In this document: piece by piece, positions 3 to 6,473 of the stretch | Position numbering within the stretch: the stretch's first letter is position 1 | Layout: every line of letters begins with the position of its first letter | Source: an uncultured archaeon | Lineage (GTDB): Archaea > Iainarchaeota > Iainarchaeia > Iainarchaeales > CSSED10-239 | Reading direction: 5' to 3' | Length of the DNA: 9,250 nt | Assembly (NCBI GenBank): GCA_964468895.1 | Contig: CAYXWT010000031.1 | Location: 1 to 9,250, forward strand | Position numbers and translations under genes: made by a program | Notes under the pieces: model-generated | Told to the model about the DNA's origin: nothing | Databases searched by the model: none | What the model saw: the letters and a program-made list of their open reading frames with translations, nothing else

Positions 3-1235
3 GAATTAGATGTTGAGTATGATAATTTTGTAGTTACTTCAAGTGCTAATCATCATTTAGGTGTTAAGAAAATTTGGAACAAATTAGTAGAATCAGGAGA
101 TATTTACAAAAAACAATATAAAGGTTTATATTGTGTTGGCTGTGAGAGTTATAAAACTGAAAAAGAGTTAGTAGATGGTAAATGTCCAGATCACCCAACT
201 AAAGATATAGAAATTTTTGAAGAAGAAAACTATTTTTTTAAATTATCTAAATATAAAGATGAAATATTTAAATTAATTTCAAATAATACTTATGAAATTG
301 TTCCAGAATCTAGAAAAAATGAAATTTTAGAATTTTTAAAAAATGCAAATGATATTAGTTTTTCTAGACCTATAACTAAATTACCTCATGGTGTTGTAGT
401 TCCTAATGATCCAGAACATATTATTTATGTTTGGTGTGATGCTTTATCTAATTATCTTACAGGTATTGGTTATGGTCAAGATTCTAAAGATTATAAAGAA
501 TTGTGGCCAGCAGATGCTCATATTGTAGGTAAAGATATTTTAAGATTTCATGCTGCTTATTGGCCAGCTATATTATTATCAGCTGGTATTGAACTTCCTA
601 AAAAACTTTTTGTTCATGGTTGGCTTTTAACAAATGGTCAAAAAATGAGTAAATCTACTGGTAATGCTATAGATCCTTTTGAAGAAATAAAAGCTTTTGG
701 AAAAGACATCTTTAGATTTTATTTATTAGGTTGTATGTCTTTAGGTAGAGATGGAGATTATACTAGAGATTTACTTAAAGATAAAATTAATTCTGAACTA
801 GTTAGTAATTTTTCTAATTTTTGTTATAGAACTTTATCTTTTATAGAAAAAAAATATAGTTCTAATGTCACTACTCTACATAACGATGTTGATTTAATTA
901 AAAAAATAAAAGATAAAGAAGAAATAATAAAAGAATTATATAATAATTTTAAATTTAAAAAAGTATTAGAGGAAATTCTAAATATTTCTCAATTAGGAAA
1001 TCAATATTTTCAAAGTAATGAACCTTGGAAGGAAAATCCTAAATCTATAATGGTTCTTACTACTTGTGTTAATATTATTAAAGATCTATGTATATTACTT
1101 AAACCAATTATACCTTCTGCTTGTGATAAATTAGAAAAGCAGTTAAATCTTAAAAATTTAAAGTGGAAGGATTTGGGTTTTAATTTAGAAAATCATAAAC
1201 TTAATAAATCTGAGATTTTATTTAAAAAAATATGA
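3..1235 (+). CDS. metG: Methionyl-tRNA synthetase (class I), 5'-truncated by the window edge; C-terminal 410 aa present
   Basis: Frame 3 is open from base 3. My own translation of 3-500 reads ELDVEYDNFVVTSSANHH..YKGLYCVGCESYKTEKELVDGKCPDH..YVWCDALSNYLTG. The ORF track only starts at an internal TTG (501). KMSKS signature at 642-656. Zinc-knuckle-like CVGC (132-143) and CPDH (183-194) lie in the connective peptide. A helical anticodon-binding-type C-terminus follows. The protein stops (TGA, 1233-1235) without an appended Trbp111/EMAPII-like domain. Confidence 0.93.
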   Translation, partial: ELDVEYDNFVVTSSANHHLGVKKIWNKLVESGDIYKKQYKGLYCVGCESYKTEKELVDGKCPDHPTKDIEIFEEENYFFKLSKYKDEIFKLISNNTYEIVPESRKNEILEFLKNANDISFSRPITKLPHGVVVPNDPEHIIYVWCDALSNYLTGIGYGQDSKDYKELWPADAHIVGKDILRFHAAYWPAILLSAGIELPKKLFVHGWLLTNGQKMSKSTGNAIDPFEEIKAFGKDIFRFYLLGCMSLGRDGDYTRDLLKDKINSELVSNFSNFCYRTLSFIEKKYSSNVTTLHNDVDLIKKIKDKEEIIKELYNNFKFKKVLEEILNISQLGNQYFQSNEPWKENPKSIMVLTTCVNIIKDLCILLKPIIPSACDKLEKQLNLKNLKWKDLGFNLENHKLNKSEILFKKI

Positions 1236-2178: not shown

Positions 2179-3108
2179 ATGACTTATTTATCTAAACTTA
2201 AAAGAAATAATAAAACCTATTATTATCTTGTAGAAAACATCCCAATTTCAAAAGGCAAAAGAAAACAGATAAGAAAGTATATTGGTACAATTAAACCCAG
2301 TGAGAAAAAGTTATCTTTGGAAATGTCTAAATTTGAAAAAGATATTATATCTAAAAGAAAAGAATTACAAGGATTTTTTTATTTAACTAAAGACGAAGTA
2401 CAAGAAATAGAAATCATAAATTCAAATTTTTGGAAAAAATATACTAAACTTACAAAAACTCAAAGAAGTATTTTTTGGAATAATTTTGTTAATGTTTTTG
2501 TATATAATATTAATTCAATAGAAGGTTCTACTTTAACTTTTAGAGAAGTTGAATTATTATTATCAGATAATATTTCTCCAAATAGACCACTTGAAGATGT
2601 TTTAGAAACAAAATCTGCAAAAAAAGCTATAGATTATATTTTAAATTATAAAAAAGATTTATCTATAGATTTAATTACAAGTATTCATAAAATTTATTTT
2701 AAAGATAGTTTTCCAGATATTGCTGGTAAATTTAAAAGATTAAATAATAGAATAAGAGGATCTAAGTTTAATACTACTCCTAAAGAATTAGTATTAACAG
2801 ATTTAAAAATATTTATAAAAGAATATAATAAATTAAGAACAGAATTACATCCTATAGAATTAGCTTCTTGGGTTCATTGGTTTTTTGTTAAAATCCATCC
2901 ATTTCAAGATGGAAATGGAAGAATATCAAGATTACTTATGAATTTTATATTATATAAAAATAAATTTGCATTAATTGATATTAAAACTAAGGAAAAGCAA
3001 GTTTATTTTAATGCACTTGAAAGATGTAATTATTTAAATAATGCAAAACCATTAGTTCAAAGATTTGTTAGAAGATTTAAAAAACAATATAAAAATATAG
3101 AATTATAA
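2179..3108 (+). CDS. Fic-domain protein (probable AMPylase / nucleotidyl- or phospho-transferase) with an uncharacterised basic N-terminal region of about 100 aa
   Basis: Canonical Fic active-site motif HPFQDGNGR (residues 240-248, nt 2896-2922), matching HxFx(D/E)GNGRxxR and followed by ISRLL. An upstream helix carries NSIEG (nt 2512-2526), resembling the class II inhibitory (S/T)xxxE(G/N) helix. Confidence 0.9.
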   Translation: MTYLSKLKRNNKTYYYLVENIPISKGKRKQIRKYIGTIKPSEKKLSLEMSKFEKDIISKRKELQGFFYLTKDEVQEIEIINSNFWKKYTKLTKTQRSIFWNNFVNVFVYNINSIEGSTLTFREVELLLSDNISPNRPLEDVLETKSAKKAIDYILNYKKDLSIDLITSIHKIYFKDSFPDIAGKFKRLNNRIRGSKFNTTPKELVLTDLKIFIKEYNKLRTELHPIELASWVHWFFVKIHPFQDGNGRISRLLMNFILYKNKFALIDIKTKEKQVYFNALERCNYLNNAKPLVQRFVRRFKKQYKNIEL

Positions 3109-3563
3109 TTATTTTAAGGTTGTTATAGGATTAATATTCTTTGGGATTATTAGTTATTTTAAAAAACGACTTTTTTATGGAAGAGATAATTATAATTAAT
3201 TATTAAGTTTAAATTATTTTTTAAGGAATCTTTTCTTATTTAACTTTGAAGTAAAGATTTATATCTTAGAAATATATAAACATAATTTTAGAACTAATTA
3301 TATTGTACTATTATACCTATGGGTTTTCTAGATGATTTTTTAAATGGTTTTTATGGAAAGTGCAATAGTATTTATTGATAATAATTATTTGGAACTAATT
3401 TTCAGATAATTTGGTAATTTTAAGGTAGATATAAAAGAATTATCTGTACTGCTATGTAAAAAATTAGATTTTTGGTGTGATTCTATTTATTTGTATGATG
3501 TTCCTCTATATCAAAATATAAATTCTAAGATTAACAGAGTTAGGAAAAGAAGACATAATTGGT

Positions 3564-3941
3564 TTATTTTTTCTTATAACCAAATTTTTTATTATGATTT
3601 TTATGATTCATCAAATCAAAAATTAAAGATACAATTTCAATATTATTTCCTTTTATTGTATAAATCATTCTCCAGGAATTTGAAAGATTTATTTTCCATA
3701 AATTATTTACATCGTAATCTATAATATATATTTTAGAAATTCTATTTTTTGGTATGTTGATACCATATTCAGGATTTACTCTAAGTAAATCTATTTTTTG
3801 TTTAATTGATTTTAGTAATGTTTGATAATTACTACTAGTAATTCCTTTTTTTATTTCTTGACCTACAGTTTTATTTAAATCATCAAATTCTTCTTTGGCT
3901 TTTCCTGTTATAACTACTTTTATTGGTTTTTCTTTAAACAT
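3564..3941 (-). CDS. RelE/ParE-superfamily-like toxin candidate (125 aa)
   Basis: Pattern typical of RelE/ParE folds. N-terminal helical hairpin (KAKEEFDDLNK..LLKSIKQKIDLLRVNPEYG). Then beta strands LWKINLSNSWRMIYTI..IEIVSLIFDL (the aromatic-R-hydrophobic-I-Y signature). Basic C-terminal tail HKNHNKKFGYKKK. It is the second gene of a 1-nt overlapping pair. Assignment is from remembered family patterns, not a search. Confidence 0.55.
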   Translation of the reverse strand: MFKEKPIKVVITGKAKEEFDDLNKTVGQEIKKGITSSNYQTLLKSIKQKIDLLRVNPEYGINIPKNRISKIYIIDYDVNNLWKINLSNSWRMIYTIKGNNIEIVSLIFDLMNHKNHNKKFGYKKK

Positions 3942-4219
3942 TATAACTTAATTCCGTCTTTTATTGCTTTATTGAGTTTAGAGCTTTGGTTGTAAATCCA
4001 TAATATTCCTTTTCTACCATCTAATATTTTCCCTGAATTTTCTAAATATTCTAGTATTACATTTAAAGTCTGATGCATTATTTTATTTGGTAATCTTTTT
4101 TTGATATCTTCTCTTGTTATAAGGTGGTTTGCCTTCTTTAAAACTGTCTCTACTGTTAATACAGTTTTTAAGGTTGGATAATGAATTATTTCTACTTTTG
4201 TTCTTTGCATTTTCATCAC
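3941..4219 (-). CDS. Small winged-helix DNA-binding protein, candidate antitoxin/autorepressor (92 aa)
   Basis: ITREDIKKRLPNKIMHQTLNVILEYLENSGKILDGRKGILWIY reads as helix-turn-helix plus a beta-hairpin wing. Its stop TAA shares one base (3941) with the ATG of the downstream 125-aa gene (TAATG on the minus strand). Start is GTG 4219, with alternative ATGs at 4216 and 4210. Confidence 0.5.
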   Translation of the reverse strand: MMKMQRTKVEIIHYPTLKTVLTVETVLKKANHLITREDIKKRLPNKIMHQTLNVILEYLENSGKILDGRKGILWIYNQSSKLNKAIKDGIKL

Positions 4220-4393
4220 ATCTATATATTTATATATAATTATATGTATAGACTTATATATATTTGTTTTGGTTAGGTGTTTTTTATTAGTTATTTTACT
4301 AATTGATTTTATTATGTTTAAAGAATAGCTTTTTAATTTTTATTATATAATAATTATATAGTAATTAGATATTAATTGTGTGGTTAAATTTGT

Positions 4394-5384: not shown

Positions 5385-6473
5385 GTGAGTAAATTAATAG
5401 TAGATACAAAAAAAATTATTGAAAATATAAAAAAGGTTAATGATATATTAAGCCAAAAAGATATAAAATTTACACTAGTTACAAAAATATTATCTGGCAA
5501 TAAAAAAATATTAACTAAAATTTTAAAAGATCCAATTATTAAAAAAGTACATTCAATTGGAGATTCAAGATTTTCTAATCTTAGAATTATTAAAGAAATA
5601 AATCCAAAAATTATAACAATGTACATTAAGCCTCCTTCTATTAAAGATATTAAAAAAGTAGTTCAATATGCTGATATTTCTTTAAATACTTCTCTAGAAA
5701 CTATTAAAGAAATAAATAAAGAAGCAAAACTTCAAAATAAAATTCATAAAATTATAATTATGTTAGAATTAGGTGAATTAAGAGAAGGAGTATTAGGTAA
5801 AAACTTAATTAAATTTTATACTAATTGTTTTAAACTTAAAAATGTAAAAATTCTTGGAATTGGTGCAAATTTAGGTTGTATGTATGGTATTGAACCTACT
5901 TATGATAAAATGATTCAATTATCTTTATATTCTCAATTATTAGAAGCTAAATTTAAAACTAAATTTAAATTTATTTCTGGTGGTACTTCTATTACATTGC
6001 CTTTAGTTAATAAAGGGTTGCCCAAAAAAATAAATCATTTTAGAATTGGAGAATCTGTGTTTTTAGGTACTAATCCTATGACTGGAAAAAAATTTAAAAA
6101 TTTATCTACTAGTGTTTTTAGTTATGAGGCAACAATTATTGAACTTAAAAGGAAAAGAAATATACCTGATGGAAAAATGGGTGAAGCTAGTATTGGGCAT
6201 ACTTCTGAAGTCAGTAAAGATCTTAAAAAAAGTTATAGAGCAATTTTAGATTATGGTGTTTTAGATGTAGATTCAAAAGAGATTACTCCAATTAATAAAA
6301 GTATTTCTTTTGTTGGTACTACTTCAGATATAAGTGTTTTTGATTTAGGTGAAAATGAACCTCAAAAAAATGTAATTGATAAAAAAATTGGTTCTAAAGT
6401 AAAATTTAAAGTAACATATATGGGTGTTGCAAGATTACTTCATTCAAGATACACAGAAATTAAAATTAAATAA
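5385..6473 (+). CDS. PLP-dependent amino-acid racemase, alanine/ornithine racemase family (COG3457 / YhfX-Orr-like)
   Basis: Family-typical blocks: FTLVTK (candidate PLP lysine at nt 5484-5486), IGDSRFSNL, MLELGELREG, FISGGTSITLPLV, INHFRIGESVFLG. Start moved to GTG 5385 on RBS grounds; the ORF track gives 5364. Confidence 0.8.
   Translation: MSKLIVDTKKIIENIKKVNDILSQKDIKFTLVTKILSGNKKILTKILKDPIIKKVHSIGDSRFSNLRIIKEINPKIITMYIKPPSIKDIKKVVQYADISLNTSLETIKEINKEAKLQNKIHKIIIMLELGELREGVLGKNLIKFYTNCFKLKNVKILGIGANLGCMYGIEPTYDKMIQLSLYSQLLEAKFKTKFKFISGGTSITLPLVNKGLPKKINHFRIGESVFLGTNPMTGKKFKNLSTSVFSYEATIIELKRKRNIPDGKMGEASIGHTSEVSKDLKKSYRAILDYGVLDVDSKEITPINKSISFVGTTSDISVFDLGENEPQKNVIDKKIGSKVKFKVTYMGVARLLHSRYTEIKIK

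Follow-up and report, generated by a model that had tools for sequence, protein, structure and literature searches.

Modularity is a known feature of type II toxin-antitoxin systems, several of which contain toxins of the RelE/ParE fold. In RelBE, YefM-YoeB, and DinJ-YafQ, the antitoxin is encoded first, with the toxin gene translationally coupled to it, the classical antitoxin families being RelB/ParD-type ribbon-helix-helix (RHH), Phd/YefM, AbrB/MazE, and Xre/HigA proteins. ParD and PaaA2, the antitoxins of ParE-type systems, are RHH proteins or helical peptides and not winged-helix (wH) proteins. The archaeal RelE-fold toxin aRelE (P. horikoshii; M. jannaschii, 3bpq) is encoded downstream of its antitoxin aRelB, a small protein without a winged helix that is wrapped around the toxin. 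A survey of type II systems listed Xre, RHH, StbD/Phd, and MJ1172-like partners for RelE and no winged-helix family, and the only stable pair with a non-Xre helix-turn-helix (HTH) protein in that survey was ArsR-COG3832 (Makarova et al., 2009, PMC2701414). A wH module is present in AbiEi, the antitoxin of the type IV system AbiE, where it autoregulates via inverted repeats (PMC7319586). DPANN archaea, in turn, conserve to an unusual degree a module of a nucleotidyltransferase (MNT) and a HEPN protein that is apparently kept for a cellular role (Makarova et al., 2019, PMC6393860). Here, we focused on a two-gene cassette on the minus strand of a 9,250-nucleotide stretch (positions 1 to 9,250 of contig CAYXWT010000031.1, assembly GCA_964468895.1) from an uncultured archaeon of the Iainarchaeota, referred to as the window, in which a gene for a small wH protein is followed by a gene for a 125-amino-acid protein. 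An earlier interpretation of the letters and open reading frames (ORFs) without database searches, the sequence-only reading, had proposed this pair as an atypical type II toxin-antitoxin candidate. The folds of both proteins, their coinheritance, their variable surroundings, and the decay of toxin genes lend support to this proposal, and the cassette is, in our judgment, probably a toxin-antitoxin module of type II that is specific to DPANN archaea and made up of a RelE/ParE-fold toxin and a new family of wH antitoxins/repressors. The cassette recombines known parts and is not a new kind of system; our literature searches returned no description of a wH-RelE pair or of its DPANN family.

With RelBE, YefM-YoeB, and DinJ-YafQ, the cassette shares the order and coupling of the genes, the fold of the toxin, and a palindromic operator candidate. 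It differs from them in its wH partner, which replaces the RHH, Phd/YefM, AbrB, or Xre antitoxin, in a toxin that is 30 to 40 residues longer, in a conservation of proteins and operator that is much higher than usual, and in being confined to DPANN archaea among the relatives found here. The sequence-only reading had recognized a RelE/ParE strand signature in the downstream protein, and profile searches, which it had recommended for both proteins, place this protein in the RelE/ParE superfamily. The match to PF05016 scores 23.7 bits against a curated cut-off of 23 (E = 7.4e-5, profile positions 1 to 81 of 89), so that membership is borderline, and the NCBIfam model TIGR02385 (RelE_StbE) reaches 24.5 bits, under its cut-off of 27.9. 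Among 63 diverse relatives collected from genomes, RelE_StbE is matched by 42 and PF05016 by 32 (both at E < 0.01), while the YoeB models are matched by 4 to 6 and PF24732 (ParE_like) by 7. Some family members are already automatically annotated as "RelE/ParE family toxin" or "mRNA-degrading endonuclease RelE."

Given that searches of the PDB with the sequence or the profile of either protein gave chance-level matches only, the link to known folds rests on AlphaFold2 (AF2) models and Foldseek comparisons. The toxin model (mean predicted local distance difference test score, pLDDT, of 79.6) contains strands at residues 8 to 11, 61 to 63, 81 to 85, 90 to 97, and 100 to 108 and helices at 13 to 31, 38 to 55, and 70 to 76. 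This corresponds to the N-terminal strand, two-helix hairpin, and antiparallel sheet of the RelE/ParE fold, with the topology β-α-α-β-(inserted helix)-β-β-β followed by a conserved basic tail rich in His and Tyr. The sequence-only reading had staked its proposal on structural similarity to this fold, and such similarity is present: RelE/ParE-fold proteins make up 48 of the top 50 Foldseek matches in the PDB, the exceptions being PfiA (chain 9w3a_B) and Txp40. The leading matches are PfiT, ParE3, YoeB, ParE2, PrpT, RelK, HP0892/HP0894, HigB, YafQ, and the RelE domain of Cami1, with a TM-score of up to 0.76 on the target (YoeB). The best structural counterparts belong to ParDE-type systems, including PaaA2-ParE2 and PfiAT. 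The archaeal aRelE chain 3bpq_B follows at rank 42 with a weak match (TM-score of 0.34 to 0.46). Alignment of the toxin profile to a three-sequence YoeB profile with hhalign was significant (probability of 85%, E = 6.6e-6), and alignment to the single E. coli RelE sequence was not (probability of 1.4%); the E. coli YoeB and RelE query sequences were confirmed against the PDB. The extra length of the toxin had been ascribed to a longer N-terminal helical region, and this holds for a part of it, as helices α1 and α2 are indeed longer. The remainder is due to an insertion of ∼15 residues relative to YoeB (residues 66 to 80, which include the helix at 70 to 76) and to a 16-residue C-terminal tail.

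For the upstream protein, the HTH-plus-wing pattern that had been noted in its sequence agrees with the AF2 model (mean pLDDT of 80.7), where a three-helix bundle (residues 16 to 29, 35 to 41, and 48 to 61) precedes a β-hairpin wing (64 to 66 and 72 to 75) and a C-terminal helix (79 to 86). Its top 50 Foldseek matches are mostly wH proteins or domains (Rpa2-WH, LmrR/PadR, MarR, Rpc34, and Z-alpha, with probabilities of 0.9 to 1.0), and they include neither an antitoxin nor an aRelB-like chain. No Pfam or NCBIfam family covers the window protein or its 126 distant relatives, apart from weak Pfam matches to TBPIP, SelB-wing, and RPA_C. There was also no profile or fold match to the classical partner families, in line with the earlier remark that the putative antitoxin is of an unusual type. 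The match to the PADLOC model of AbiEi is marginal (E = 0.005 over 46 residues of a 265-position profile, with 7 of the 126 relatives matching) and concerns the wH core only; AbiEi is a two-domain protein that acts with a nucleotidyltransferase toxin, and its C-terminal domain is absent here. A profile search of 1.84 billion representative proteins yielded 629 clusters (E ≤ 1e-3, 50% identity), showing that the wH family is sizeable and unnamed, its members being called "hypothetical protein" wherever a source names them. Conservation is highest in an N-terminal motif, (V/I)-H-Y-P-x-L-K-T-V-L, at the beginning of helix 3, M-H-Q-T-L-N, and in the wing, D-G-R-K-G-I-L-W, a pattern that fits a conserved DNA-binding surface. 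The C-terminal helix (PSxKLxKAIxxGxEL) is short, amphipathic, and modeled with lower pLDDT, and it is our candidate for the element that would contact the toxin.

The two genes are small, codirectional, and overlapping, as in the operons of type II systems. The one-base overlap on the minus strand reported by the sequence-only reading is present in the sequence, where the wH stop codon TAA (3943-3941) and the toxin start codon ATG (3941-3939) share one base, an arrangement that indicates translational coupling. The overlap is conserved rather than fortuitous, as 48 of 64 intact homologous pairs have one of either 4 nt (32 pairs) or 1 nt (16 pairs). The wH protein itself had been read as 92 residues starting at a GTG codon, which our comparison corrects: the start is most likely the ATG codon that gives 89 residues. 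Most wH homologs begin with MQ-K-L-E-V-I-H-Y-P, the gene call on an identical contig gives 89 amino acids (MQRT...), and the GTG lies inside a Shine-Dalgarno-like element, whose function we suggest from its alignment with homologs.

The toxin was searched for in 185,579 species representatives, one genome per GTDB species, with specific peptide patterns, so that the counts are a lower bound. This yielded 115 relatives, of which 80 were kept, from Woese-, Nano-, Aenigmat-, Iain-, Undin-, and Micrarchaeota, and identity falls from ∼75% to ∼43%, roughly by lineage. At least 80 DPANN species have the wH and toxin genes together as a unit, and in 81 of 86 loci the wH gene stands directly upstream of the toxin gene and on the same strand. 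The pairwise identities among toxins correlate strongly with those among their partners (Spearman coefficient of 0.80; Mantel test, with none of 500 permutations reaching this value), as expected of two genes that are strictly coinherited. Purifying selection is strong (pS of ∼0.79, which is saturated, pN of ∼0.16, and dN/dS of ∼0.08), and the mean column identity among 51 relatives is 86%.

The surroundings of the pair vary from locus to locus. There is no synteny: clustering by similarity sorts the 609 flanking ORFs into 552 groups and leaves 510 of the ORFs as singletons. The commonest flanking family, an AAA-ATPase, is found in 6 of 79 loci and an integrase-like family in 4, and single loci have other toxin-antitoxin genes, a TIR gene, or transposases nearby. 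A housekeeping operon, which the identity of the homologs (65 to 78%) had brought to mind, is unlikely given that no flanking family occurs in more than 6 of the 79 loci. Together with a patchy distribution and the presence of multiple and decayed copies, this variable context describes a mobile cassette. Three loci (L022, L057, and L075) carry two divergent copies. At L022, the cassettes stand in tandem on the same strand (3602-4251 and 5723-6375, ∼1.5 kb apart), each with its own operator, and belong to divergent subfamilies, with toxins 46% and 66% identical to that of the window and a wH N-terminal motif reading HSP in one and HYP in the other. A toxin gene broken by stops, frameshifts, or loss of the start codon stands beside an intact wH gene in at least six loci (L061, L080, L076, L057, L058, and L017), although some of these lesions may be assembly errors, whereas a disrupted wH gene was found only once, in a Micrarchaeota locus (L085) with an intact toxin ORF. 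This asymmetry is expected if the downstream protein does harm in the absence of its partner. The L085 wH gene is apparently split by an insertion of ∼3.5 kb, with its N-terminal 30 codons at 2190-2279 and the remainder at 5799-5990. A permuted order is seen at L067, where an intact toxin gene (1499-1876) without an upstream wH gene is followed by an operator (∼1894-1910) and an intact wH gene (1936-2205) with no toxin gene after it; this order may have arisen by rearrangement or be what is left of a circular intermediate. Searches of the viral, plasmid, and phage collections IMG/VR, PLSDB, and INPHARED returned no relatives, so that carriage by plasmids or viruses is unsupported, a weak negative since mobile elements of DPANN archaea are scarce in these collections.

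Conservation extends to the DNA upstream of the wH gene. In an alignment of 43 loci, the 60 to 70 nt preceding the gene are conserved across unrelated contexts and lineages, while the sequence further out differs. The consensus, AAAAnCnnAAnATAT-TTATATAAGTTTATATA-TnTAnT-TATATAAATTTATATA-AAnnGGTGAnTnAAA-ATG, holds two 16-bp palindromes, TATATAA-GT-TTATATA and TATATAAA|TTTATATA, spaced 22 bp from center to center, i.e., about two helical turns. The corresponding operator candidates in the window are termed O1 (distal) and O2 (proximal); O1 overlaps a TATA-box-like TTTATATA, and the A-rich stretch upstream of it may be a transcription factor B recognition element (BRE) if the consensus of archaeal promoters is a guide. 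With up to 3 mismatches allowed, 11 matches to the palindrome occur in the window where 3.3 are expected, a number that none of 200 shuffled sequences reached, and 6 of the 11 are clustered at 4221-4260; an independent repeat search reported direct and inverted repeats at 4215-4267. The region 4220-4393, named by the sequence-only reading for electrophoretic mobility shift assays with the upstream protein, contains this conserved candidate. A degenerate 17-mer, TTATATAARTYYATATA, is present in 31 loci, every time just upstream of the wH gene. Among ∼101 near-matches in 751 kb of locus DNA, 81 are located at the start of a wH gene and the majority of the others upstream of wH genes outside the list of pairs, showing that the element is specific to these genes. 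Micrarchaeota have a different upstream repeat and a different start of the recognition helix (M-R-S-T versus M-H-Q-T), in agreement with covariation of protein and operator, although this may reflect a single evolutionary event.

The wH domain is also found with other partners. A C-terminal MNT domain (NTP_transf_2) is fused to 5 of the 126 wH relatives, and in a contig from Logan SRR22387766 (L087, 1630-2538) such a fusion (P0277, 178 amino acids) overlaps by 4 nt with a downstream HepT-like (HEPN) gene and is preceded by CGAAAGATTTATATATAAGTTTATATA, the same BRE/TATA palindrome as in the window cassette. Given that this locus shares both the wH domain and the palindrome with our cassette, which has no MNT or HEPN domain and in this differs from HepT-MntA systems, the wH domain and its operator appear to form a portable DNA-binding and autoregulatory unit of toxin-antitoxin contexts. 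In the fusion, the antitoxin activity would come from the MNT domain, whereas the stand-alone wH protein, if it is an antitoxin, would have to do so itself. On two short contigs (L089, 125-581, and L090, 151-607), a distant wH member (P0300, 98 amino acids) is followed after 4 nt by a 51-amino-acid ORF that is not RelE-fold and may be a different partner.

As to what the toxin might do, nine of its residues are invariant among the 63 diverse relatives: L22, N80, L81, W82, L86, W90, R91, Y94, and H113. All but L22 and H113 belong to the strand signature mentioned above. The sequence-only reading had also pointed to a basic C-terminal tail rich in His, Lys, and Tyr as the usual place of RelE-family catalytic residues, and the tail proved conserved, with H113 invariant and Y116, K118, F120, and Y122 (as well as K83 outside the tail) kept in at least 90% of the relatives; the window copy has H116. 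A Lys in strand 2, an Arg in strand 3, and a C-terminal His with aromatic residues are the pattern of the RNases RelE, YoeB, YafQ, and HigB, and R65 is a catalytic residue of YoeB. Invariant R91 aligns with YoeB R65 in the hhalign comparison, and K83, H113, and Y116/Y122 likewise appear to be placed where RelE/YoeB-type RNases have catalytic residues. To our knowledge, ParE proteins do not have this pattern. The comparison rests on established family knowledge and partly on alignment by eye. Since the RNase-type residues are conserved, even though the tail is poorly modeled, we prefer an mRNase mechanism to a ParE-like one.

The mechanism that we propose combines these elements. The 89-residue wH protein would be translated first, with the toxin translationally coupled to it. 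Probably as a dimer, the wH protein would bind the two palindromes, sites that coincide in part with the BRE/TATA element and the likely start of transcription, so that the operon would probably repress itself at its own conserved promoter. The wH protein would also bind and neutralize the toxin, most likely via its C-terminal amphipathic helix. By analogy with RelE, YoeB, and YafQ, the free toxin is most likely a ribosome-dependent mRNA endonuclease, which would use K83, R91, and H113/Y116/F120/Y122.

Several observations weigh against this reading. The family matches of the toxin are borderline, with a margin of just 0.7 bit for PF05016 and a TIGR02385 score below its cut-off, the PDB sequence searches stayed at chance level, the best Foldseek E values are modest (4e-4 to 1e-2), and the top structural matches are ParE-type toxins and not RNases. 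The C-terminal tail of the toxin (residues 110 to 125), which bears the proposed catalytic His and Tyr residues, is modeled with a pLDDT below 50, so that its placement relative to the sheet is tentative. Binding and neutralization of the toxin by the wH protein are drawn from analogy, and whereas classical antitoxins have long disordered regions for toxin binding, the wH protein is compact and has only short tails. Because the palindromes are rich in TA and overlap the TATA box, promoter function could explain part of their conservation. Many relatives also share 65 to 78% protein identity, which is unusually much for a toxin-antitoxin pair. Finally, the window toxin deviates at five positions conserved in at least 90% of members (H62N, P69S, L108F, I110L, and Y116H), where the family median is 1 and only 13% of members have 5 or more, suggesting that this toxin or its lineage may be attenuated. 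A close relative (P0003), 98% identical to the window toxin, has a 3-residue deletion in the same C-terminal tail.

Alternatively, the cassette could have the same architecture but a ParE-like toxin, poisoning a type II topoisomerase (gyrase or a related enzyme). ParE-type toxins provide four of the six best Foldseek matches (PfiT, 9w3a; ParE3, 5ceg; ParE2, 5czf; and a chimeric ParE, 6x0a), PF05016 carries the name ParE_toxin, PF24732 is matched by some relatives, and PfiT offers the precedent of a ParE-type toxin with a functional C-terminal extension (PMC13048266). Nevertheless, RelE_StbE, from NCBIfam, is the most frequent match, YoeB models match as well, and PF05016 spans both RelE and ParE. 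Together with the alignment of R91 to a catalytic residue of YoeB and an RNase-type residue pattern lacking in ParE, this makes the topoisomerase-directed alternative quite improbable in our view. We also think it rather unlikely that the wH protein is a transcription factor only, and that the RelE-fold protein is a regulated RNA-binding protein or RNase that is not intrinsically toxic and has a physiological or defense role. The pair would then be an operon of regulator and effector and not an addiction module with neutralization by direct binding. In favor of this are the unusually strong conservation and low dN/dS, the occurrence of the family in many DPANN lineages with identity declining by lineage, and its absence from the viral, plasmid, and phage collections. 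The wH protein has no long disordered tail, and in the MNT fusion it is clearly the DNA-binding part only; moreover, the MNT-HEPN module of DPANN archaea is apparently kept for a cellular role (PMC6393860), and the neighboring Fic gene in the window is a candidate defense gene. What speaks against this alternative is the lack of a conserved context, a patchy distribution (at least 115 relatives among all species representatives), tandem and multiple copies, the decay of toxin genes beside intact partners, and the strictly kept stop/start overlaps, which are typical of stoichiometric pairs.

The possibility that both ORFs are chance frames in AT-rich DNA or functionless remnants can practically be dismissed. 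The window is very AT-rich and spurious ORFs do occur in it, for example 3491..3724 on the plus strand inside the toxin gene, but hundreds of homologs of the same length, synonymous saturation with a conserved protein, and confident structure models refute this explanation. A bolder form of the toxin-antitoxin reading, for which we see a limited but real chance, is that the wH domain and the double-palindrome promoter form a portable unit that serves unrelated toxins, that the RelE-fold toxin is neutralized via the compact wH domain, and that the module is perhaps kept for a cellular role. If true, this would be a previously undescribed antitoxin family and a mode of neutralization without a disordered tail, and the strong conservation of proteins and operator might mean a cellular role in host-dependent archaea rather than a purely selfish element.

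Given the known modularity of type II systems, the new partner extends their catalogue and not their concept. What is new here is the conserved double palindrome upstream and the reuse of the same wH domain and operator in a fusion to MNT beside HepT. Naming the wH partner family, which has no counterpart in Pfam, NCBIfam, or the PDB, would improve the annotation of DPANN genomes, whose defense and toxin-antitoxin content is poorly described. Few cis-regulatory elements have been defined in DPANN archaea, and this candidate repressor-operator pair can be tested directly and may be of use as a genetic tool. The "toxin" has been under purifying selection over the long term, and this and its lineage-tracking divergence also echo the DPANN MNT-HEPN module, which raises the question of a role in symbiont biology.

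TABLE 1 Coordinates of the cassette, its candidate regulatory elements, and its neighbors in the window
Feature	Position	Strand	Basis or remarks
Toxin gene, 125 aa, RelE/ParE-superfamily fold	3564..3941	(−)	ORF, profiles, AF2, Foldseek, hhalign
wH gene, 89 aa from ATG 4210, predicted antitoxin and autorepressor	3941..4210	(−)	ORF, homologs, AF2, Foldseek
Maximal wH ORF from GTG 4219	3941..4219	(−)	92 aa, ORF listing
TAATG stop/start overlap	3939..3943	(−)	Sequence
Putative Shine-Dalgarno-like TGTGAT, 4 nt 5' of ATG 4210, contains GTG 4219	4215..4220	(−)	Aligns with conserved GGTGA(T) of homologs
Operator candidate O2: window TATATATAAATATATA, family consensus perfect palindrome TATATAAATTTATATA	4223..4238	(−)	Alignment, repeats
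Operator candidate O1: window TATATAAGTCTATACA, consensus TATATAA-GT-TTATATA	4245..4260	(−)	Best window match, 2 mismatches
A-rich stretch AACCAAAACAAATA upstream of O1, corresponds to conserved (C)GAAAGA of homologs	4261..4274	(−)	Alignment
T-rich run TCTTCTTTTCCT, 11 nt 3' of toxin stop	3542..3553	(−)	Sequence; low confidence
Fic-domain gene, 309 aa	2179..3108	(+)	PADLOC families
AT-rich gap between Fic and toxin genes, 455 nt	3109..3563		
Gene for RNA_ligase-domain protein, 221 aa	4394..5059	(+)	PF09414, E = 1.5e-9
Gene for RuBisCO large-subunit homolog, 474 aa	6690..8114	(−)	RuBisCO_large_N and RuBisCO_large (gene call, identical contig)

The cassette is self-contained and comprises ∼720 bp (window ∼3564-4274, minus strand), from the BRE-like stretch to the toxin stop codon, as no DNA conservation was seen 3' of this codon across the loci. 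The T-rich run behind the toxin gene may be an archaeal oligo-T terminator marking the end of the cassette, an assignment of low confidence. A search 3' of the toxin gene for an attC integron cassette or a small-RNA component was negative: no conserved DNA follows the stop codon, the stretch 3100-3563 lacks a convincing inverted repeat, and neither Rfam families nor tRNAs were matched in the window. A scan for bacterial sigma-70 promoters (15 found versus 12.7 expected) and terminators (0 found) was uninformative.

The window DNA is AT-rich, and a near-identical metagenome contig in ENA differs from it by 24 mismatches in 7,805 nt. Relatives of the window genes carry DPANN labels, among them Woesearchaeota, Nanoarchaeota, and Aenigmatarchaeota. 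The Fic-domain gene converges on the toxin gene as an unrelated neighbor; its product matches the PADLOC candidate-defense families PDC-S04 (E = 4.6e-35) and SoFic (E = 2e-21), the latter enriched in DPANN archaea according to a 2026 survey (PMC12988326), and the window may be a small defense or toxin-antitoxin islet. On a longer identical contig, a DDE transposase and an AAA-ATPase/DUF4143 gene lie a few kilobases from the cassette. No ORF of 40 or more amino acids is present on the relevant strands in the gap that separates the convergent Fic and toxin genes. For a compact DPANN genome this gap is unusually long, and it may be a decayed gene. Divergent from the cassette stands the gene for the RNA_ligase-domain protein, which has weak similarity to Rnl2/DRB0094 and is not kept beside the cassette in other genomes. 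At the other end of the window, a sub-ORF of a methionyl-tRNA synthetase gene (501..1235) was rejected as a pseudogene, since the frame is open from base 3 and the gene runs off the window. The RuBisCO large-subunit homolog is adjoined by an alanine-racemase-N-domain protein and an FKBP-type isomerase, and the contig as a whole is DPANN-like.

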